DNA of 64,000 bases from an uncultured Eubacteriales bacterium. Its GTDB lineage: Bacteria > Bacillota > Clostridia > Oscillospirales > CAG-272. A model generated the notes under the pieces. The model had not been told where the DNA came from, searched no databases, and was given only the letters and a program-made list of their open reading frames with translations. Numbering within the stretch: position 1 is the stretch's first letter; every line of letters begins with the position of its first letter. Shown one piece after another: positions 2,896 to 63,887 of the stretch. The position numbers were made by a program, and so were the translations under genes. The DNA lies in contig CAKRSS010000002.1 in assembly GCA_934401725.1 (NCBI GenBank), positions 1 to 64,000 on the forward strand, written 5' to 3'.

Positions 2896-3589
2896 CAAGG
2901 TCATAATTGCGCTGGATTTTGACAGCGCGCAGAAGGTTTACGGATTTCTCAACAAATTCGGAGACCGCGAGCTTTTTGTCAAGGTCGGCATGGAGCTGTA
3001 CTATGCGGAAGGCCCCACGATAATCCGCGAGATTAAAAAGCGCGGCCACAAAATCTTCCTCGACCTCAAGCTGCACGACATTCCGAACACTGTAAAGAAG
3101 GCCATGCACGTGCTGTCCGGTCTTGATGTTGACATGTGCAATCTTCACGCCTCGGGTACGCGCGAGATGATGGAGGCGGCGCTCGAGGGACTTACGCGCG
3201 CGGACGGCAGCCGCCCGCTGCTCATCGCGGTGACGCAGCTGACCAGCACCGACGAGCGCGCGCTGCACGAGGAGCTGCTTATCGAGCGCCCGATGAAAGA
3301 GGTCGTTATGTCCTATGCGGCGCGGGCCAAGGATGCCGGGCTTGACGGCGTGGTCTGCTCGCCGATGGAATCCGCCGCGGCGCACGAGAGATGCGGCAGT
3401 GGCTTTCTGACAGTGACGCCCGGCGTACGTTTTGCAGACGGCGACAAGGGCGATCAGAAGCGCGTCATGACGCCCGCCGAGGCACGCAGAATCGGCTCGG
3501 ACTACATCGTCGTCGGCCGTCCGATAACGGCGGCAGCTGACCCGGTAGCGGCATATGACCGCTGTGTAAGCGAATTTTCCGGTAACTGA
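2888..3589 (+). CDS. pyrF: orotidine 5'-phosphate decarboxylase
   Basis: 233 aa. OMP decarboxylase motifs are present (IIALDF, FLDLKLHDIPNTV). It overlaps the pyrD stop. Confidence 0.9.
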   Translation: MDNKVIIALDFDSAQKVYGFLNKFGDRELFVKVGMELYYAEGPTIIREIKKRGHKIFLDLKLHDIPNTVKKAMHVLSGLDVDMCNLHASGTREMMEAALEGLTRADGSRPLLIAVTQLTSTDERALHEELLIERPMKEVVMSYAARAKDAGLDGVVCSPMESAAAHERCGSGFLTVTPGVRFADGDKGDQKRVMTPAEARRIGSDYIVVGRPITAAADPVAAYDRCVSEFSGN

Positions 3590-19770: not shown

Positions 19771-20390
19771 TTCGGCACCCCGGCATAGACGCTGCCGACA
19801 TACTCAAACGGATCGACGACCTGCCCGTCGACGCGTATCTCAAAATGCAGGTGCGGGCCTGTGGCGCGCCCGGTCGCGCCCGCGACGGCTATGCTGTCGC
19901 CCGCATGCACGGCGTCGCCATCGACGGCGAGAATTTCGGCGCAGTGGGCATAGAGCGAAACGTAGTCTCCGTGGTCAATCATAAGGTAGTTTCCGTAGCC
20001 GGCGCTGCTGCCGGTGAAGCAGACGACTCCGTCGGCACAGGCGCGTATGTCGCGGCTGTGAGCGGCTGAAATGTCGATGCCGCGGTGAAATTCGGTGTCG
20101 GCCTCGCCGCCGACTGCGGCGTTGAAGAAGGGATCGTCGCGCCATGCAAATCCGGAGGTGATCCGCCCGTCGAGCGGGAAGATTATGCGGGGGAGATTAA
20201 ACGAGGCCTCGCTTTCTTCGGTCGTGGCAGGGAGTGTTTCGGGCGGGCGCGGGTTTCTGACACTGTCCGCCGTCTCGGGCGCTCCGAGGACGCGCGGGAC
20301 GGCTGTCACAAAGCAGACGACTATCGTCAGTATCGCACATACCGCGAGCAACGCCGGGAGAAAATTGTTATCGGATGATTTGGTATTCAT
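19767..20390 (-). CDS. M23/LytM family peptidase with an N-terminal TM anchor, SpoIVFA-like
   Basis: HRGIDI...DGDAV...HLHFEI catalytic motifs. N-terminal TM helix. Translationally coupled to the downstream M50 protease. Confidence 0.55.
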   Translation of the reverse strand: MNTKSSDNNFLPALLAVCAILTIVVCFVTAVPRVLGAPETADSVRNPRPPETLPATTEESEASFNLPRIIFPLDGRITSGFAWRDDPFFNAAVGGEADTEFHRGIDISAAHSRDIRACADGVVCFTGSSAGYGNYLMIDHGDYVSLYAHCAEILAVDGDAVHAGDSIAVAGATGRATGPHLHFEIRVDGQVVDPFEYVGSVYAGVPN

Positions 20391-20465
20391 ATCATTGTTA
20401 CTCCTTGGATAATTGGGAACGTATCTATTTATATGCTATCCGCAGCATTTTCATACCGCGGGATA

Positions 20466-20494
20466 TTGTCAAAGCTATGCTTTTATGGTACAAT
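20466..20494 (+). promoter_or_regulatory. candidate sigma-A promoter reading into repeat copy A and the HAD gene
   Basis: TTGTCA, 17-nt spacer, TACAAT. Confidence 0.4.
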
Positions 20495-20500
20495 AGCTTT

Positions 20501-20646
20501 AAGGCATCACCGCGCAATGCCCGAGTGGGCACACTTGACGGGCATTTTTCCGTAATATTTCAAAAAAATTCTTTGCGAATTTTTGTTTCATCTGACGAAA
20601 AATCTGACTGCGCAATTGCGCAATCGGAATTACGCGGTGAAGCCTT
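20501..20646 (+). repeat. copy A of a TIR-bounded intergenic repeat family (146 bp)
   Basis: Ends AAGGCATCACCGCG ... CGCGGTGAAGCCTT form a 13/14 inverted repeat, with an internal perfect palindrome GCGCAATTGCGC. It is about 85% identical to the reverse complement of 62769-62934, and both of its ends are present in 36813-36875. Confidence 0.8.
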
Positions 20647-20652
20647 GATAGA

Positions 20653-21303
20653 ATGAAAGGCTTTGATGCAATGAAGGACATTGAATGGATATTTTTTGAC
20701 ATGGGTTACACACTCGTAAACGAGGACGCCGCTCATGAGCGCCGCATAACCATCGCGCTCGAGCGCCTGGCAAAGCTCGGTGTGCACGACGTTACGCGTG
20801 AGCAGTTTTGGCGCGCGGCGCGGAAATTCGGTTCGCAGGGCGAAGCGCCGTTTCCGGCAGCGGCACGGCATTTCGGACTCAAAAAGATGCCGCACTACAC
20901 CAATGACGGCGAGGTCGCCTATCCCGACTCGCGCGAGGCGCTGTGGCGGCTCCGGTCGCACTGTAAGCTCGGAATAATCGCAAATCAACCGCTCGGCTCT
21001 GCGCATCGGCTGACACTCTACGGCCTCGGCGACTGCTTTGACGCACTGTTTCCGTCGGCCGAGGTCGGAATCGAAAAGCCGGACACCGGGCTTTACATTG
21101 CGGCGCTACGCGGAGTCGACTGCGAGCCCTCTCACGCACTGATGGTCGGCGACCGGCCGGACAACGACATAGTCCCGGCGCACGAGGTCGGTATGCGGAC
21201 GGCGCGTATACTGCGCGGCTTTTACCGCGGCATGGCCGATTTGACGCCCCCTGATGTAACAGTGAACAGCCTTGATGAGCTTGCCGTTTATTTCCACTGT
21301 TGA
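20653..21303 (+). CDS. HAD-superfamily hydrolase (subfamily IA)
   Basis: Motif I (IFFDMGYTL) and C-terminal GDRPDND. Confidence 0.7.
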   Translation: MKGFDAMKDIEWIFFDMGYTLVNEDAAHERRITIALERLAKLGVHDVTREQFWRAARKFGSQGEAPFPAAARHFGLKKMPHYTNDGEVAYPDSREALWRLRSHCKLGIIANQPLGSAHRLTLYGLGDCFDALFPSAEVGIEKPDTGLYIAALRGVDCEPSHALMVGDRPDNDIVPAHEVGMRTARILRGFYRGMADLTPPDVTVNSLDELAVYFHC

Positions 21304-32358: not shown

Positions 32359-35300
32359 ATGCCTAAACACATACTCGAAATTTTCTCAAAATATGAACCA
32401 TCCGCCCGCGCAAAGGCGATATTGGCCTCGTCCGGCGAAAATCGGCTGCGATATGATCGCGAACAGCGTATCGTCGAGATGGAGGTAGCCTTTCCCGAGC
32501 TTGTGCTGAAGGAAGACCTGTATGAAATAGAGACCGCGATATGCGCGGCGTATCAGATGAGTTACGTAAAGCTGCTGCCGAAATATCCGGCGGCGCTTTT
32601 GTCGTACTATTACATACCGCAGGTGCTTATAGAAACCGAGCGCACGGGTGTCGTTGCGCGCGGCTTCTTTTCGGATTATACCTACGAGTTCGATGGCAGG
32701 CGGCTGACGGTCGATCTGCACACGCTTCAGAGCGGAGTAGACCTCGTCAACGACTTCAAGACTCCGCAGGTCATCGAAGGCATAATTTTCAGCGAATTCG
32801 GTGTGCGCGTGAGCGCCGAGATAATCTGTTCCGACCCGATGGTCGGCTATTCCGATGCGGTTTTGCGCGAGTATGAGGCTATTGACAGCACGCTGTCGCA
32901 GCTCAGCCGCAGCTATTCGCCGGATTACGGCGGCGGAAGCGAGAGTAACGGCTATTATCGCCGTCAGAAGGACGCACCGGCGGACGCTCCGGAATCCGAC
33001 GCGAATGATGAGCCTCAGCTGACGCGCGTCACCTCGCTTTACGCCGCGCCGGAGGTGCCCATCGACCAGCCGCAGGATCCCCTGATTTACGATTCCGGCT
33101 GTCGCCGCTTTGATCTCAGCGCTCCTGACTATGTCTACGGCGACGAGTTCGACGTGCGCCCGGTACACATCGCACGCATAACACAACCTCAGCACAATAT
33201 CGTTGTTGTCGGGGACGTTTTCGACTTCAAAAACGAGCCCACACGCTCTGGCGACAAGAACAACGTGTCTTTTTCGCTGACCGACTACAATTCATCAATA
33301 GATGTACGGCTTTTCGGCCTTGACCCGGACGAGGCCAAGACCATAGAGTCGTTCGCGCCCGGCGCGACACTGGCGCTTTACGGCTCCGCGCGTCAGGAGA
33401 CGCGCAAGGACAACAAGGCCACAAACGAAATCATTTTCAGATTTCAGCACGCCGCACGTGTGCGCGCCATCGGGCGCGAGGATAACGCCGCCGAAAAGCG
33501 CGTCGAGCTGCACCTGCACACGACAATGTCGACTATGGACGCGCTTATCTCGCCGCCCGATGTCATAAAGATAGCCAAAAAGTGGGGGCATACCGCCATC
33601 GCCATAACCGACCACGGCAACCTTCAGGCGTATCCTGAGGCCATGCTCGCAGCGGAAAAGCTGGGTGGGGTCAAGGTGATATACGGCATGGAGGCGTACT
33701 TTGTCAACAATACGTCCAGTGCGCTGTACGGTGAAGGTGCAGATTTTGAAGGCGAATTTGTTGTTTTTGACATCGAGACGACCGGTCTTTCCAACCGGAA
33801 CGACCATATCACCGAGATAGGCGCCGTGCGTATCCGCGCAGGCGAGATTGTCGAGACGTTCGGCACATATGCAAACCCCGGCATGCACATTCCGGAGGAA
33901 ATCACAAAGCTGACCGGCATCACAGACGAGATGGTCGCCGACGCGCCGAGTCAGATCGAGGCAGTGCAGGCGTTTCTTGACTTTGTCGGCGGACACATGC
34001 TCATCGCGCACAATGCCGACTTCGATATGGGTTTTATACGTCGCGTCTGCGACGACAACGGTATTCCGTTTGACCACCCCTATCTTGATACGGTGGCGCT
34101 GTCGCGCTACCTCAATCCCGAGCTGAAAAACCACAAGCTGGACACGCTCGCGAAGTACTTCGAGCTCGAGGATTTCAACCACCACCGCGCTTACGACGAC
34201 GCGTCAATACTTGCGAAGATATTCCTCTGCATGGTCGAAAAAATGCGCGGCATGGACATACGCAGCTTCAGCGACCTCACCCGTGAGATGAGCGAGAACG
34301 CTGATCCCATGAAGCTCAGAACCTACCACCAGATAATTCTGGTCAAAAACGCAGTCGGACTTAAGAATCTGTACAAGATAGTTTCGGAAAGCTACCTGAA
34401 TTACTTCCACCGCAACCCGCGCGTGCCCAAGACGGTGCTTGAAAAATACCGTGAGGGCCTTATAATCGGCTCGGCGTGCGAGGCGGGCGAGCTTTACACC
34501 GCCATACTCGACAACAAGCCCGAGTCCGAAATCGAGCGCATAGCCGAGTTTTACGATTACCTCGAAATACAGCCGGTCTGCAACAACCGCTTTCTTGTCG
34601 ACGACGAAAAGCTGAGTGATGACGATGCCATACGCGACATAAACCGCCGCATATACGAGCTCGGCAAGCGGCTCGGCAAGCCCGTCGTGGCGACCTGCGA
34701 CGCGCATTTCGCCAACCCCGAGGACGAAATATACCGCAAAATTCTGCTCACCGGCATGAAATTCAAGGATGCCGACCGCGACTGCGGGCTCTACCTGCGC
34801 ACGACCGAGGAGATGCTTGAGGAGTTCTCGTATCTCGGAGAGGAGGCTGCGTATGAGGTTGTGGTTAAGAACACCAACCTCATAGCGGACATGGTTGAGG
34901 AGGTGCGTCCTATTCCGAAGGGCTTCTTCACGCCGTCGATCGAGGGCGCGGACGAGGAGCTGCGCGACATGTGCTGGAAAAAGGCACACAGCATGTACGG
35001 AGACGAGCTTCCCGCGGTCGTGTCCGAACGGCTCGAAAAGGAGCTTAATTCAATCATAGAGCACGGCTTTGCCGCGCTGTATATCATCGCGCAGAGGCTG
35101 GTCAAGTTCAGCGAGGACAACGGCTATCTGGTCGGCTCGCGTGGCTCGGTCGGCTCATCGCTCGTGGCGATAATGGCAAGTGTCTCCGAGGTCAACCCGT
35201 TGCCGCCGCACTATTGGTGTCCGAACTGTCGGTTCTGCGACTTTGAAAACGTCGGAAATGTCGGCTCGGGCTTTGATTTGCCCGACCGAAACTGCCCCGT

Positions 35301-36813
35301 CTGCGGGCAAAAGCTGCTAGGCGACGGTCACGACATTCCCTTTGAAACCTTCCTCGGCTTCTACGGCGACAAGTTCCCGGACATCGACCTTAACTTCTCC
35401 GGCGACGTCCAGGGACGCGTACATAAGTTCACTGAGGAACTGTTCGGCGTCGAGAACGTCTTCCGCGCCGGAACGCTCGGCACGCTCGCGGACAAAACTG
35501 CGTACGGATTTGTCGTCAAATACCTTGAGAACAAGGGAATTTCGCTGCCGCGTGCCGAGGTTAACAGGCTGATATACGGCTGCGTCGGCGTCAAGCGGAC
35601 AACGGGTCAGCACCCCGGCGGAATCGTCGTTATCCCGAAGGAATACGACGTCTGTGATTTCACGCCGGTGCAGCACCCCGCCGACGACCCGAAATCCAAC
35701 ATAATCACAACGCACTTTGCCTTCACCTATCTGCATGACACCATTCTCAAGCTCGACGAGCTGGGACACGATATGCCGACGAAATATAAGTACCTCGAGA
35801 AGTACTCGAACACCTCTGTGCTCGACGTTCCCATGAACGACCGCTCAATTTACGACCTGTTTCTCTCGACCAAACCGCTCGGTGTCTCCCCCGAGGACAT
35901 CAACTGTCCGCTGGGCACGCTCGGTCTGCCTGAGCTCGGGACGAAGTTTGTTGTAAAAATGCTCCAGGAGTCCAAGCCACAGTCCTTCGCCGACCTGCTT
36001 CAGGTCTCCGGTCTTTCCCACGGAACCGACGTCTGGACCAACAACGCGCAGGATCTCATCAAGGACGGCACCTGCAACATTTCCGAGGTTATCGGAACAC
36101 GTGACTCCATCATGCTTGCGCTCATCAAATACGGTGTTGAGAAAAGCCACTCGTTCAAGATTATGGAGATGGTGCGTAAGGGCAAGGGCCTGACGCCCGA
36201 GTTTGAGACCGAGATGCGCGCGGCGAACGTGCCGGAGTGGTACATTTCGTCCTGCAAGAAGATAAAATACATGTTCCCGAAGGCGCACGCCGCGGCGTAC
36301 GACATGTCGGCGATACGTCTCGGGTGGTACAAGGTTCACATGCCGCTGGCCTTCTACTGCGCCATGTTTACCGTCCAGCCGCTCGGCTTTGATGGAGAGC
36401 TGGTCATGCGCGGCAAGGCTACCGTCAAGGATTATATCGCGGACATCGAGCGCCGTCAGAATTCCAATGACAACCCGGCGTCGCAGAAGGAGCTCCAGAG
36501 CCTGCCGGTACTGATGCTGGTCAACGAGGCGTATGCCCGCGGGATCAGATTTCTGCCCGTCGACCTTGAGAAATCAAGCGACTTTGAGTATCTGCCGGAG
36601 AACGGCAAAATCAGACTTCCGTTCTCGGCGTTTGCTGGTATAGGAGAGAACGCCGCCGCGAGCATAATCAGCGCACGTAACGACGAGCCGTTTTTCTCGG
36701 TCGAGGATTTGCGCACCCGCGCGGGACTGACCAAGAGCGTTATCGAAATTCTCCGGCGCAACGGCGCGCTTGACAATCTCAACGAAACCGATCAGCTTAC
36801 ATTTATGATATAA
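32359..36813 (+). CDS. polC: DNA polymerase III PolC-type
   Basis: 1484 aa. Exonuclease motifs (FDIETTGL), PHP domain, and an inserted zinc-finger region (HYWCPNCRFCDF...CPVCG). Confidence 0.97.
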   Translation: MPKHILEIFSKYEPSARAKAILASSGENRLRYDREQRIVEMEVAFPELVLKEDLYEIETAICAAYQMSYVKLLPKYPAALLSYYYIPQVLIETERTGVVARGFFSDYTYEFDGRRLTVDLHTLQSGVDLVNDFKTPQVIEGIIFSEFGVRVSAEIICSDPMVGYSDAVLREYEAIDSTLSQLSRSYSPDYGGGSESNGYYRRQKDAPADAPESDANDEPQLTRVTSLYAAPEVPIDQPQDPLIYDSGCRRFDLSAPDYVYGDEFDVRPVHIARITQPQHNIVVVGDVFDFKNEPTRSGDKNNVSFSLTDYNSSIDVRLFGLDPDEAKTIESFAPGATLALYGSARQETRKDNKATNEIIFRFQHAARVRAIGREDNAAEKRVELHLHTTMSTMDALISPPDVIKIAKKWGHTAIAITDHGNLQAYPEAMLAAEKLGGVKVIYGMEAYFVNNTSSALYGEGADFEGEFVVFDIETTGLSNRNDHITEIGAVRIRAGEIVETFGTYANPGMHIPEEITKLTGITDEMVADAPSQIEAVQAFLDFVGGHMLIAHNADFDMGFIRRVCDDNGIPFDHPYLDTVALSRYLNPELKNHKLDTLAKYFELEDFNHHRAYDDASILAKIFLCMVEKMRGMDIRSFSDLTREMSENADPMKLRTYHQIILVKNAVGLKNLYKIVSESYLNYFHRNPRVPKTVLEKYREGLIIGSACEAGELYTAILDNKPESEIERIAEFYDYLEIQPVCNNRFLVDDEKLSDDDAIRDINRRIYELGKRLGKPVVATCDAHFANPEDEIYRKILLTGMKFKDADRDCGLYLRTTEEMLEEFSYLGEEAAYEVVVKNTNLIADMVEEVRPIPKGFFTPSIEGADEELRDMCWKKAHSMYGDELPAVVSERLEKELNSIIEHGFAALYIIAQRLVKFSEDNGYLVGSRGSVGSSLVAIMASVSEVNPLPPHYWCPNCRFCDFENVGNVGSGFDLPDRNCPVCGQKLLGDGHDIPFETFLGFYGDKFPDIDLNFSGDVQGRVHKFTEELFGVENVFRAGTLGTLADKTAYGFVVKYLENKGISLPRAEVNRLIYGCVGVKRTTGQHPGGIVVIPKEYDVCDFTPVQHPADDPKSNIITTHFAFTYLHDTILKLDELGHDMPTKYKYLEKYSNTSVLDVPMNDRSIYDLFLSTKPLGVSPEDINCPLGTLGLPELGTKFVVKMLQESKPQSFADLLQVSGLSHGTDVWTNNAQDLIKDGTCNISEVIGTRDSIMLALIKYGVEKSHSFKIMEMVRKGKGLTPEFETEMRAANVPEWYISSCKKIKYMFPKAHAAAYDMSAIRLGWYKVHMPLAFYCAMFTVQPLGFDGELVMRGKATVKDYIADIERRQNSNDNPASQKELQSLPVLMLVNEAYARGIRFLPVDLEKSSDFEYLPENGKIRLPFSAFAGIGENAAASIISARNDEPFFSVEDLRTRAGLTKSVIEILRRNGALDNLNETDQLTFMI

Positions 36814-36875
36814 AGGCATTACCGCGCAACGCACGAATGGCGCAGTTGCGCCATCGGAATTACGAGGTGAATCCT
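36813..36875 (+). repeat. copy B of the repeat family (63 bp, internally deleted), abutting the polC stop
   Basis: AAGGCATTACCGCGCAACG..GCGCAGTTGCGCC..GGAATTACGAGGTGAATCCT. It carries both terminal modules of copies A/C and the central GCGCA(G/A)TTGCGC palindrome. Confidence 0.7.
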
Positions 36876-36921
36876 AAAAAACCAGTCGGCGTCCGGAATC
36901 GGACACCGACTGGTTTTTTTA
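36876..36921. terminator. bidirectional intrinsic terminator (polC / convergent membrane-protein gene)
   Basis: AAAAAA CCAGTCGGCGTCCGG aat CGGACACCGACTGG TTTTTTT. Confidence 0.9.
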
Positions 36922-37713
36922 TTTATTTTGCCGACGAAGCTCGCGGGAGCGCTGTGTCATGAGCCCCCACAGCATTCCGAGATACGATGCAAAGCCGAGG
37001 ACAAGGCACATGAAGTAGTAAAGAAGCATCCAAAGCAGATCCGCAAGGCTCCGCGGCGGGCCGATGATAATGTCGTTTATAAGCAGCTGCACTGCCTTGC
37101 TGACGGTGATGAGCCCGCCAATCCACAACGCCGCACGCTGAAACGGATTCTGCTTGTTTATCAGCGAGGTGAAAGGGAAGAACAGCGACTCTTCGTCAAA
37201 TCGGTAGTTCTCGAGCTTGCCCTCGAGCGACTTTTTTTCGGCAATGAATCCGCCCGCCTGACGCATGACACGGCTGATTATAAGCAATACCAAAGCGAGT
37301 TGCGCTATCTCGAGCACAAGCGGCAGAAGAAACGCGAGGAGTATGTCCGTCAGGTAGTTTTTGACGGAGGGCAGCGTTCCATTCATGATGACGGTGACGG
37401 CGACCTTGGCGACGTATTTGTACACCGTCAGCAGTGCAAATGCGATAACGTATCCCCGCCGCTGACGCTGAGTCGAGGTGCGCCATCTGAAGAGTATCAC
37501 AGTGTACGCCGCAAGCATACCGATAAGCTCGCACAGGTCGGTGGCGTACGGTATTATGTCCACGAACACCGGGATCATGAACGCAACATCGGTCTCGGAC
37601 TTGACGTACAGCGTTGTCATCACGACCGCGTAAAACGTGAATATTGCGAACACAGTCAGCACCATGCCGACCAGTGAGCGCTTATATGATTGATTTTTTA
37701 CATCCTGACTCAT
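36919..37713 (-). CDS. hypothetical polytopic membrane protein
   Basis: 264 aa with 6-7 predicted TM helices. No recognisable catalytic motif. Confidence 0.5.
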   Translation of the reverse strand: MSQDVKNQSYKRSLVGMVLTVFAIFTFYAVVMTTLYVKSETDVAFMIPVFVDIIPYATDLCELIGMLAAYTVILFRWRTSTQRQRRGYVIAFALLTVYKYVAKVAVTVIMNGTLPSVKNYLTDILLAFLLPLVLEIAQLALVLLIISRVMRQAGGFIAEKKSLEGKLENYRFDEESLFFPFTSLINKQNPFQRAALWIGGLITVSKAVQLLINDIIIGPPRSLADLLWMLLYYFMCLVLGFASYLGMLWGLMTQRSRELRRQNK

Positions 37714-46303: not shown

Positions 46304-46335
46304 AGGGGCAGTTCGAGATATTGTGATTTGATCGC

Positions 46336-46406
46336 GCTTGTATATACCCCATGATATGGTTGGGAAGTTTCTACCGGATAACCGTTAATTGTCCGACTAT
46401 GAGCAG
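46336..46406 (+). ncRNA. purine riboswitch aptamer (guanine class)
   Basis: UAUA-P2 with GAUAUGG loop, J2/3 AAGUUUCUACC, P3 GGAUA...UGUCC, then GACUAUG with the discriminator C. The match to the xpt G-box is nearly position for position. Confidence 0.85.
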
Positions 46407-46454
46407 ACAGAGAATTGCCCCGCGAGAACTGCATTTTTGCCGTTCCCTTGACGA

Positions 46455-46497
46455 CCGGCGTCTGCGCATAGAAGCTGCAGGCGTCGGTTTTGTTTTG
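46455..46497 (+). terminator. riboswitch expression-platform terminator
   Basis: An 11-bp stem (CCGGCGTCTGC / GCAGGCGTCGG, including 2 GU pairs) followed by TTTTGTTTT. Confidence 0.6.
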
Positions 46498-46548
46498 GCT
46501 TTACGGGCTATGCCCCTGAGCATATATAAAAATCATGGAGGAACAATC

Positions 46549-47820
46549 ATGTTCAAAAAAATCCTGTCACTTGCGCTTGTTGTCGTAATGTGTGCTTCAC
46601 TCTGCCTGGCTATGGTGTCCTGCTCTGACAATCAAGATCAGGGTGACGACATCATCGAATCCCCCCTGCCTCTGATCGAGACCAAATCCACGGTCACTGT
46701 GCCGGCCGACTTCAAGATCGGTTTCATTTTCCTGCACGACGAGAACTCCACCTACGACGCCAACTTCATCAACGCTGCAAAGAGAGTTCAGAAGGCGCTG
46801 AATCTGAAGGACGAGCAGATTGTTCTTAAGACAAATATTCCTGAGGACGATACCTGCTACAGCACCGCTATTGACCTTGCTGACCAGGGCTGCAATATCG
46901 TGTTTGCTGACTCCTTCGGTCACGAGGGCTACATTCTCCAGGCCGCTAAAGAGCGTCCAAACACCCAGTTCTGCCACGCAACCGGTACCCGCGCTCACAC
47001 CGAGGGTCTGGCTAACTTCCACAACGCGTTCGCTTCCATCTACGAGGGCAGATACCTCGCCGGTATCGCCGCTGGTATGAAGCTCAACGAGATGATCGAG
47101 TCCGGCAAGATCACCGCAGACAAAGCCGTCATGGGCTACGTCGGTGCGTACACCTATGCCGAGGTTATTTCCGGCCTTACTTCCTTCTACCTTGGCGCAA
47201 AGTCTGTTTGCCCCAGCGTTAAAATGAAGGTTCAGTTTACCGGCTCCTGGTACGACGAGGCTAAGGAGCAGGAGGCTGCAAATGCTCTTATCAGCAAGGA
47301 CTGCGTCCTCATCAGCCAGCACGCTGACTCCATGGGCGCTCCCTCTGCTTGCGAGATGAAGGGTATCCCGAATGTTTCCTACAACGGCAGCACCGTTTCC
47401 GCTTGCCCCGACACATTCATCGTTTCCTCTGCCATCAACTGGACCCCTTACTTCCAGTACATCATCGAGTCCTACGTCAAGGGCGAGGCAATTGCTGCTG
47501 ACTGGTGCGGCGGTATCGACGAGGGCTCCGTTGTCCTGAGTGACATCAACGGCAAGGCCGCTGCCAAGGGCACCAAGGAGAAGATTGCCGAGACCATCAC
47601 CGCTTTGAAGAACGGCACTCTCAAGGTCTTCGACGTCAACACCTTCACCGTCAACGGCGAGAAGCTGACCTCCTACATGGCTGACGTCAACTTTGACGAG
47701 AACTACACCAAGGATACCGAGGCCATCAAGAACGGCGCGTTTGCCGAGTCCTCTGACCGTTCGGCTCCTTACTTCGATCTCACCATCGACGGTATTGAGT
47801 TCCTGAACTCGATGTATTAA
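46549..47820 (+). CDS. BMP-family (PnrA/Med-like) nucleoside ABC transporter substrate-binding lipoprotein
   Basis: Signal peptide plus lipobox (LAMVSCSD). BMP-family fold. GGAGGA RBS. Confidence 0.8.
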   Translation: MFKKILSLALVVVMCASLCLAMVSCSDNQDQGDDIIESPLPLIETKSTVTVPADFKIGFIFLHDENSTYDANFINAAKRVQKALNLKDEQIVLKTNIPEDDTCYSTAIDLADQGCNIVFADSFGHEGYILQAAKERPNTQFCHATGTRAHTEGLANFHNAFASIYEGRYLAGIAAGMKLNEMIESGKITADKAVMGYVGAYTYAEVISGLTSFYLGAKSVCPSVKMKVQFTGSWYDEAKEQEAANALISKDCVLISQHADSMGAPSACEMKGIPNVSYNGSTVSACPDTFIVSSAINWTPYFQYIIESYVKGEAIAADWCGGIDEGSVVLSDINGKAAAKGTKEKIAETITALKNGTLKVFDVNTFTVNGEKLTSYMADVNFDENYTKDTEAIKNGAFAESSDRSAPYFDLTIDGIEFLNSMY

Positions 47821-62735: not shown

Positions 62736-62768
62736 GCCAGAAAACGTTGAGTAGCAAGCAAATAAATA

Positions 62769-62934
62769 AAGGCATCACCGCGTAATTCCGATGGCGCAAT
62801 TGCGCAGCCAGATTTTTCGTCAGATGAAACAAAAATCCGCAGGCTGTAGCAGCGCTACAGACAAGGATTTTTGTGAAATATGACGAAAAAATGCCCGGCA
62901 AGTGTGCCACTCGAACATTGCGCGGTGATGCCTT
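62769..62934 (-). repeat. copy C of the repeat family (166 bp, inverted relative to copy A)
   Basis: AAGGCATCACCGCGTAATTCCGATGGCGCAATTGCGCAG ... CATTGCGCGGTGATGCCTT. It is the reverse complement of copy A, with a ~20-bp palindromic insertion (CTGTAGCAGCGCTACAG). Confidence 0.8.
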
Positions 62935-63115
62935 AACTCTTAGCGCCAACATGACACGCCGTATAATAACGTTCACATACAAGGAACGCCGTATTGACAA
63001 ACATAGTCACCAGACAAATCAAACGCAGAAGAAACCCGATGGCCGAGGCCAAAGGAGTCAAAAACTTCGGAAAAGTCTCAAATCGCCCTGTGTCGGCCTA
63101 TTTCGCTTCCCCCGA

Positions 63116-63323
63116 TTATACAAAATTTGCATTTTGTATAATTGGGTGGCGGCGTTCAAAGCCGCCGCCCTGGCTGGGACAAGCCTTTCAGCTACTGCGC
63201 TGATACCTTAAAGCCTGTTGATTCCCTTTGCAGGACAGTCCTTTCTGCCCTCATGTTACCACAAAGCTAGTCACTTGTCAAGTGTCAGACGGACGGCGAG
63301 GCTGCAATTGAGGTCGTATTTTG
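63116..63323 (+). ncRNA. candidate promoter-driven small RNA / structured spacer (identity unknown)
   Basis: TTATAC, 15-nt spacer, TG-TATAAT at 63116-63142. A GC-rich 5' hairpin follows (GGCGGCG ttcaaa GCCGCCGCC), then about 170 nt free of plausible ORFs, ending in a U-rich tract at 63318-63323. No canonical terminator hairpin. No known RNA family recognised. Confidence 0.25.
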
Positions 63324-63393
63324 TCCAAAATACACAATAACTATCCTTCAAACTGTTCAAAACAACAAAATTAAAGAATTTCTTATATTTAAT

Positions 63394-63422
63394 TTGCAAT
63401 AAGCGGCGCGATGTGTTATAAT
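63394..63422 (+). promoter_or_regulatory. sigma-A promoter of the downstream 140-aa gene
   Basis: TTGCAA, 17-nt spacer, TGt-TATAAT. Confidence 0.55.
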
Positions 63423-63464
63423 AATTGCAGGCTACTAAGTTTTTTTGAAGGGATGGTCATATAA

Positions 63465-63887
63465 ATGGCAATTAAAATGCGCGTCCTCTATTGGACCAAC
63501 AAAGCCAAGGTAAAAACTCTGGCAAACGATCTTAAGAAAGAATTCGATCTGGCGCTGAACGCTGTCGACGCTATTCCGCCCGCCTACTCCTGCGACAAGG
63601 AGCGTCTCGTGGTGCTCTGCATCACCATCAAGGACGAACCGGACGACAAGCTGAGACTGTTCTGTCGCGAGCTGACTAAGGCTCGTGCACAGAACGTCGC
63701 GCTCATAATCGACGGCAACGAAAAAGGCGCCAAGTACATACAGGATATACTTCGCGAAGCCGGCACAAACCTCATAGAGGACGTCTGCTACTTCAAGGGC
63801 GGACTTCCCTTCCTGTCCAAGGTTTCCGACGAGGAGCGCAAGCCTGTCTTTGAATGGGCTCATCGCGTAGTCGACCAGCTTGCATAA
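63465..63887 (+). CDS. hypothetical protein (possibly flavodoxin-like fold)
   Basis: 140 aa, well-formed ORF with a GGGATGG RBS region, its own promoter, and a terminator at 63898-63946. Confidence 0.5.
   Translation: MAIKMRVLYWTNKAKVKTLANDLKKEFDLALNAVDAIPPAYSCDKERLVVLCITIKDEPDDKLRLFCRELTKARAQNVALIIDGNEKGAKYIQDILREAGTNLIEDVCYFKGGLPFLSKVSDEERKPVFEWAHRVVDQLA

Follow-up and report, generated by a model that had tools for sequence, protein, structure and literature searches.

The three intergenic hairpins in the stretch of DNA analysed here (64 kb, in the following called the window) are copies of a MITE family whose ends match those of IS5-family insertion sequences (IS), and the element is very probably mobilised in trans by an IS5-family (IS5 group) DDE transposase. 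The copies show the features by which a MITE is recognised: they are smaller than ~300 bp and non-coding, and they have terminal inverted repeats (TIRs), a target-site duplication and dispersed relatives with presence/absence polymorphism. The earlier note had called the repeats novel, which holds for the family but not for the kind of element. The family itself is new, and literature searches did not find a description of it, whereas a MITE is an ordinary kind of element. The proposal of the earlier note, a non-autonomous, TIR-bounded mobile element, is supported by the copies, the duplications, an empty site and the IS5-family ends.

Anatomy of the repeats in the window

The window has a G+C content of ~54%, and the sequenced relative closest to it is a MAG with the label Bulleidia sp. 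(GCA_963640785.1). Contigs conspecific with the window come from gut metagenome samples, Hadza samples included. Three intergenic copies in two orientations had been noticed before, and we recovered them at the same positions (Table 1) with the outer limits GGCATCACCGCG...CGCGGTGATGCC; no further copies or remnants were found elsewhere in the 64 kb. Allowing up to two mismatches, the terminal 14-mer AAGGCATCACCGCG has eight matches in the window versus 0.69 expected by chance, five of them being element ends, and a 31-nt right-end module occurs three times versus 0 expected. Aligned end to end in inverted orientation, copies A and C are 89–93% identical across ungapped segments of 76, 46 and 30 nt and C carries an extra central hairpin of ~20 nt relative to A, in agreement with the described similarity around a differing centre. 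The palindrome GCGCAATTGCGC (20610–20621 in A, 62795–62806 in C) and the segment CGTCAGATGAAACAAAAAT common to A and C, both claimed by the earlier note, are also present. Copy B has kept both ends and the GCGCAGTTGCGC palindrome and lacks the middle.

Table 1. Positions of the repeat copies, their parts and the adjoining promoter in the window
Feature	Position	Strand	Remarks
Host sigma-70-type promoter of the HAD gene	20466..20494	+	TTGTCA-17-TGgTACAAT; 10/12 matches, TG extension; outside the element
Copy A	20501-20646	+	repeat copy, located by sequence
Copy A, left target-site duplication	20499..20502		TTAA; 4 bases before the GGC terminus; from family flank pattern and empty-site alignment
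Copy A, core	20503..20644	+	142 bp, GGCATCACCGCGCAA...TTACGCGGTGAAGCC, imperfect palindrome; absent from L092, L093, L094, L097
Internal arm motif	20590..20614	+	ATCTGACGAAAAATCTGACTGCGCA; conserved, kept across subfamilies with differing TIRs
Copy A, right target-site duplication	20645..20648		TTGA; 1 mismatch to left copy
Copy B	36813-36876	+	short form, 64 bp
Copy B, left target-site duplication	36811..36814		TAAA; first three bases are the polC stop codon
Copy B, core	36815..36874	+	60 bp; both ends and GCGCAGTTGCGC hairpin tip, right TIR degenerate
Copy B, right target-site duplication	36875..36878		TAAA; identical to left, non-palindromic
Copy C	62769-62934	-	inverted versus A
Copy C, flanking 4-mer	62767..62770		TAAA
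Copy C, core	62771..62932	-	162 bp, full-length form, central GCTGTAGCAGCGCTACAG hairpin; inverted versus A
Copy C, flanking 4-mer	62933..62936		TTAA; 1 mismatch to the other side

The true boundaries of the element are GGC...GCC, flanked by a 4-bp duplication, and its TIRs comprise 14–18 bp (GGCATCACCGCGYAAT), which are found on both ends of A and C. The ends of the claimed inverted repeat could be confirmed, and in fact the inverted repeat is not confined to the termini, each copy being one long imperfect palindrome. Copy A folds with -62 kcal/mol (z = -7.2) and copy C forms a single 170-nt hairpin with -84.8 kcal/mol (z = -10.3). Paired ends co-vary between the subfamilies of the element. 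In the internal arm motif, ATCTGAC (GTCAGAT when read on the opposite strand) is directly repeated with a spacing of 12 bp, and the motif adjoins the GCGCAATTGCGC palindrome of copy A. The copies have no coding capacity, and the sole ORF crossing A (20375–20656) is missing from orthologous loci.

Target sites, the empty site and dispersal of the family

The flanks follow the pattern tt-AAGGC...GCCTT-aa, that is TTAA-GGC...GCC-TTAA, corresponding to a 4-bp duplication with the consensus TTAA. Twelve loci have TTAA on both sides. As TTAA is palindromic, these loci alone cannot separate a duplication from a longer inverted repeat, but variant 4-mers can: at seven distinct loci (window copy B and six loci numbered L in our collection) an identical non-palindromic 4-mer stands on both sides as a direct repeat, with TGAA in L009, TCAA in L021, TAAG in L091 and TAAA in L028, L033, L090 and window copy B, and the inverted arrangement was seen at none. 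Thus, the target-site duplications for which the earlier note had proposed to look do exist. Formally their length lies within 2–4 bp, since a 4-bp duplication is not separable from one of 2–3 bp, TTAA being palindromic and the variation mostly affecting the middle two positions.

Copy A, located in the intergenic region of a HAD-hydrolase gene and a divergent M23-peptidase gene, allowed us to look at the site before insertion. Orthologous intergenic regions without copy A are found in four lineages (L092, L093, L094 and L097), whose HAD proteins are 93, 84, 78 and 73% identical to that of the window, and the promoter, the ribosome-binding region (GAAAGG) and the gene start are preserved in each of them. 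The distance from ATAGC to GAAAGG is 157 nt in the window versus 11 nt in L092, and the net gain is therefore exactly 146 nt, equal to the 142-nt core plus 4. The empty site in L092 has TGAA as its 4-mer whereas in the window the 4-mers are TTAA (left) and TTGA (right), the two copies of the duplication having since diverged by one or two bases. This precise empty site in four lineages speaks for the mobile-element reading. The promoter directly upstream of copy A is conserved in the four element-free loci and pre-dates the insertion, and the earlier placement of the copy in the HAD 5' UTR just after a plausible promoter (TTGTCA-17-TACAAT with extended TG) was correct. Regarding the HAD gene itself, the listed start (ATG at 20653, 216 aa; region 20653–20688) is probably too far upstream, because the orthologs have 209–210 aa, corresponding to the ATG at 20671. 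The best Shine-Dalgarno sequence (GAAGGA) belongs to another ATG, at 20686, which stands directly before the DxD motif.

Copy B starts inside the stop codon of polC (ORF 32359–36813) and lies in the polC 3' UTR. Downstream of it a strong bidirectional terminator (~36879–36925, CCAGTCGGCGTCCGGAATCGGACACCGACTGG between an A-run and a T-run) separates the copy from a convergent gene of 264 aa, for which no Pfam match was obtained. No precise empty site was found for B: the 72% ortholog locus L307 lacks the copy with flanks too diverged to align, and an 86% ortholog contig has a different neighbourhood. Copy C follows the stop codon of spoIIID at a distance of 34 nt, and all conspecific contigs (L310–L312) contain it. 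A clean empty site was not found here either, every contig with an identical SpoIIID being filled, and several assemblies stop inside the copy. In L313 (2800–2850, equal to window 62787–62975) a 171-bp deletion, whose junction is at short TAAT-like repeats, has removed sequence from within copy C (beyond GGCATCACCGCGTAAT) and from the adjoining flank. A solo end remains, which illustrates a way for solo ends to form. Past copy C, up to the next gene (63465–63887), the window has ~530 bp without a convincing ORF (62937–63464), containing a 28-bp palindrome ATTATACAAAATTTGCATTTTGTATAAT (63115–63142) followed by a GC-rich hairpin GGCGGCGTTCAAAGCCGCCGCC. Rfam at E up to 10 gave no match for this region, and the spacing to the next gene is kept in the conspecific contigs L310–L312.

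The earlier note had also proposed to look for more copies beyond the window, and about 29 distinct insertions could be found in related metagenomic genomes. An 18-nt left-end pattern retrieved 83 metagenome loci, of which about half are chance matches inside genes and ~36 are bounded elements of 42–208 bp, located at the ~29 distinct insertion sites, with many contigs labelled human gut. A 23-nt right-end pattern revealed two more copies in MAG GCA_963640785.1, one of them at a contig end. Contigs and assemblies break inside copies of the element. The lengths across loci are 42, 48, 55, 62–63, 70–72, 100, 146, 166–167, 174, 179 and 208 bp. Short forms of 42–72 bp are common in the family, and the most probable origin of forms such as B is a deletion between GCGCAATTGCGC-type palindromes present in both arms. 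The copies adjoin unrelated genes in both orientations and lie in 5' UTRs, in 3' UTRs and between convergent genes. Distant members with different but self-consistent ends (GGCAATACCGCAC, GGCAACACCGCA and GGGAAACACTGCAT) come from fecal 'phage' records and IMG/VR contigs. No match to the element was obtained in the plasmid collection, and in the phage collection only three unannotated fecal contigs matched, which carry diverged family members.

Some loci show unusual arrangements. In the 208-bp variant (L013, 12433–12640) one arm contains the CTGCGCAAATTGCG palindrome motif three times in tandem. L055 (4285–4311), like L048, L072 and L082, has a solo element end, TTAAGGCATCACCGCGCAATTCCCG, whose position coincides exactly with the stop codon of a gene for 475 aa. 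A partner end is not present nearby, and this end-only match was rejected as an IS. In L229 a 1.85-kb segment with a gene for an RtcB-like RNA ligase, adjacent to smpB, lies between two MITEs of different TIR subfamilies (1373–1551 with GGGAAACACTGCAT and 3401–3575 with GGCAATACCGCAC). L262, L264, L276, L279 and L283 show the same arrangement, and the contigs are catalogued as viral. The bracketed gene was considered as a transposase and rejected, as it is rtcB. The metagenome contig pairs L016/L029 and L039/L085 have one element flank in common and differ on the other side, which suggests either that copies have recombined or that the assembler mis-joined contigs at the repeat.

Relation to IS5-family insertion sequences

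A transposase-bearing element with matching ends, for which the earlier note had suggested a search, was found in the form of an IS5-family IS, which is present on metagenome contigs of the human gut and of other origin. When all fetched loci were scanned for inverted end pairs 0.3–6 kb apart, the only result was L230 (4171–5306, 1,136 bp) with a sister TIR, TTAA-GGCAACACCGCACAAATAGCG...CTGTGCGGTATTGCC-TTAA. The 1,136-bp element of L230 and L298 (TTAA-GGCAACACCGCACA...TGTGCGGTATTGCC-TTAA) carries an ORF of 325 aa that matches the NCBIfam IS5-family transposase model NF033581 with 310 bits (cut-off 140) as well as Pfam DDE_Tnp_1 and DUF772, and that is ~47% identical to IS5-group transposases of proteobacterial plasmids. 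The same IS clade is represented by seven further copies, ~1.14 kb long with GGCAAYACCGCRCA as ends, and TTAA stands on both sides of the IS copies in L298 and L301. The right end of the L301 copy, TTAAGGCAACACCGCGCAATG, matches the end of the window element at 20 of 21 nt, and the other copies of the clade match the element ends at 13–15 of 15 nt. A set of 120 viral-contig matches to the 14-mer was also considered as the cognate IS and rejected, all of them being chance matches.

We propose that an IS5-family (IS5 group) DDE transposase encoded elsewhere would recognise both ends of the element, move it in trans by cut-and-paste chemistry and insert it at TTAA-like tetranucleotides, which would be duplicated on insertion. 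Small, non-coding and dispersed, with ends that begin with GG and match ~1.1-kb ISs with a single DDE transposase, and with a preference for AT-rich intergenic DNA and stop codons, the window element resembles IS5-family MITEs. It differs from them in being palindromic throughout, instead of having two short TIRs around a spacer. IS5 of E. coli duplicates 4-bp YTAR targets, TTAA included (PMC5009759), and the 4-bp duplication found here has in its commonest form TTAA one of these targets. Several results count against this assignment. Neither the 64-kb window nor ~0.5 Mb around the other copies yielded an IS5-family transposase gene (tblastn, all MITE-bearing loci), and no IS with exactly GGCATCACCGCG ends was found. 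The similarity to the IS is confined to the terminal 15–21 nt, the interior of the MITE being unrelated. Furthermore, the target is looser than YTAR (TNAA-like), many duplications (TAAA, TGAA, TCAA) lying outside of it, and the flanking 4-mers differ by 1–2 nt in 10 of 29 loci. The strand asymmetry and the conserved internal motif described below are also not predicted by a purely double-stranded DDE substrate.

Other mobile elements have been compared as well. Long-palindrome bacterial MITEs acting at the RNA level are known as ERIC/IRU in enterobacteria and Correia/NEMIS in Neisseria. Like the window element they are imperfect palindromes of 100–170 bp at short A/T-rich targets, are often co-transcribed with neighbouring genes as long hairpins and have length variants that arise via internal deletion or insertion. 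They differ in their sequence and host phylum and duplicate TA where the window family duplicates a tetranucleotide, and their parent transposase is unknown or different. With piggyBac/IS1380-type elements, which insert specifically at TTAA, the window family shares TTAA as the commonest flanking tetranucleotide. In contrast to these, the transposase of the matching autonomous element is an IS5-family DDE_Tnp_1 enzyme and non-TTAA duplications are frequent, and a piggyBac-like reading was therefore rejected.

Two explanations without a DDE transposase have to be weighed against mobilisation by the IS5 clade. Single-stranded mobilisation by an HUH (Y1) enzyme, either of the REP/BIME type via RAYT or as a palindrome-associated IS200/IS605 derivative, could account for a palindromic, intergenic element with strand-specific hairpin stability, but we consider it very improbable. 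REP/BIME and IS200/IS605 types have no target-site duplication and no TIRs recognised in double-stranded DNA, whereas the family described here has direct duplications of 4 bp that differ between sites and ends matching a DDE IS5-family element, and on these grounds (site-specific direct duplications, TIRs matching a DDE IS) the REP/BIME or IS200/IS605 origin was rejected. A RAYT or TnpA(Y1) gene was not noticed near any copy in an unsystematic look. Resemblance to a REP/BOX-type element, the finding that the earlier note had named as speaking against its own proposal, was likewise not found.

Even less probable, to the point that we give it hardly any credit, is a locally duplicated, non-mobile family of cis-regulatory or small-RNA genes in which the terminal complementarity is the closing stem. 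It would agree with the strong predicted structure and with copy A lying in a 5' UTR just past a promoter. However, the presence/absence polymorphism with duplication at a conserved site already contradicts it, and the unrelated neighbouring genes in varied contexts and both orientations, the match to IS5-family IS ends and the assemblies breaking inside the element all point away from it. At gathering thresholds Rfam gave nothing at the copies, the purine riboswitch elsewhere in the window being the only match to reach its gathering score, and at E up to 10 only chance hits appeared, e.g. a plant miRNA hairpin with 23 bits versus a threshold of 57. As a stand-alone explanation the cis-regulatory RNA family that the earlier note had offered as its alternative is thus unsupported, given the missing Rfam match, the empty site and the duplications. 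The purine riboswitch aptamer (RF00167, 70 bits versus a gathering score of 37) is located at 46318–46419 on the plus strand, and an ORF (46351–47820) starts within this match and runs on downstream.

Strand asymmetry and predicted effects on transcripts

Returning to the MITE reading, the family shows an asymmetry between its strands that is suggestive of an RNA or single-strand signal and leaves room for a function at this level on top of mobility. When 24 long elements of all subfamilies were brought into one orientation, the same strand, which is the complement of the plus strand of copy A, folds better in 23 of them by a mean of ~19 kcal/mol. It carries 5–11 G.U pairs at positions that are A.C mismatches on the opposite strand. 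A strand-neutral self-alignment of each element with its own reverse complement gave 140.5 G.U-type versus 52.5 A.C-type arm mismatches. The consensus of the window's subfamily has eight G.U-type and two A.C-type positions and that of the other subfamilies five and three. Derived states at paired positions between the other subfamilies are also biased (20 G.U-type versus 6 A.C-type, together with 24 compensatory Watson-Crick changes), and RNAalifold found double-sided changes at 22 of 44 pairs. All these counts come from sequences related by descent and are therefore not independent. The arm motif TGCGCAGTCAGATTTTTCGTCAGAT, with two GTCAGAT repeats 12 bp apart (GTCAGAT-N5-GTCAGAT), is more conserved across subfamilies than the TIRs, and in either orientation the element has, near its 5' arm, a small GC hairpin with a T-run after it.

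These observations would be explained if the spread or retention of the MITE also depended on one specific strand, as a structured RNA or a single-stranded DNA intermediate, with selection on the long hairpin. Such an RNA might be a small RNA or a module for processing, stability or termination. We regard this as unlikely, though worth considering. Against it stand the derived states within the window's subfamily, which are unbiased (11 G.U-type and 11 A.C-type) as expected from neutral decay of inserted copies, and the nearly equal folding of both strands in A and C themselves. The orientation relative to flanking genes is also mixed (~5 sense versus 6 antisense in tandem contexts with a crude ORF-based gene caller, showing no bias), and two of the three window copies are transcribed on the 'weaker' strand. 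Moreover, arm-to-arm compensatory change can also result from quasi-palindrome correction at the DNA level, and Rfam holds no corresponding family. It is a rather doubtful extension of this idea that the element goes beyond a passive MITE, with master copies selected for the one-strand hairpin and for GTCAGAT-N5-GTCAGAT, and that what an IS5-type transposase spreads is a ready-made module that forms a structured RNA or binds protein. If true, Firmicute genomes from the gut and from other habitats sampled, as well as prophage-like contigs, would have received this module, which could be a portable transcript-end, processing or insulator element. Should the strand bias be real, the family would offer a natural system for how selection at the RNA or single-strand level shapes a transposon-borne hairpin.

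With regard to the host genes, copy A was inserted at about position +1 of the HAD-hydrolase transcript and would therefore be transcribed as a 5' leader, so that the HAD mRNA, judged from the sequence, would now start with a 146-nt hairpin-forming leader. This leader contains AAUGCCCG...CGGGCAUU followed by UUUCC, a terminator-like stem with a U-run, which makes a reduced or altered HAD expression plausible as a prediction. Copies B and C would in a similar way add long hairpins to the 3' UTRs of the polC and spoIIID transcripts.

In summary, the repeats belong to a MITE superfamily that comprises at least four TIR subfamilies and is tied to an IS5 clade. It occurs in uncultured Firmicutes, and human gut samples are the origin of many of its contigs. 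It accounts for the three odd intergenic hairpins of the window and for the breaks that assemblies of these organisms show at such places. Copy A represents a recent insertion at the transcription start of a HAD-hydrolase gene, which is predicted to have probably changed the expression of this gene.
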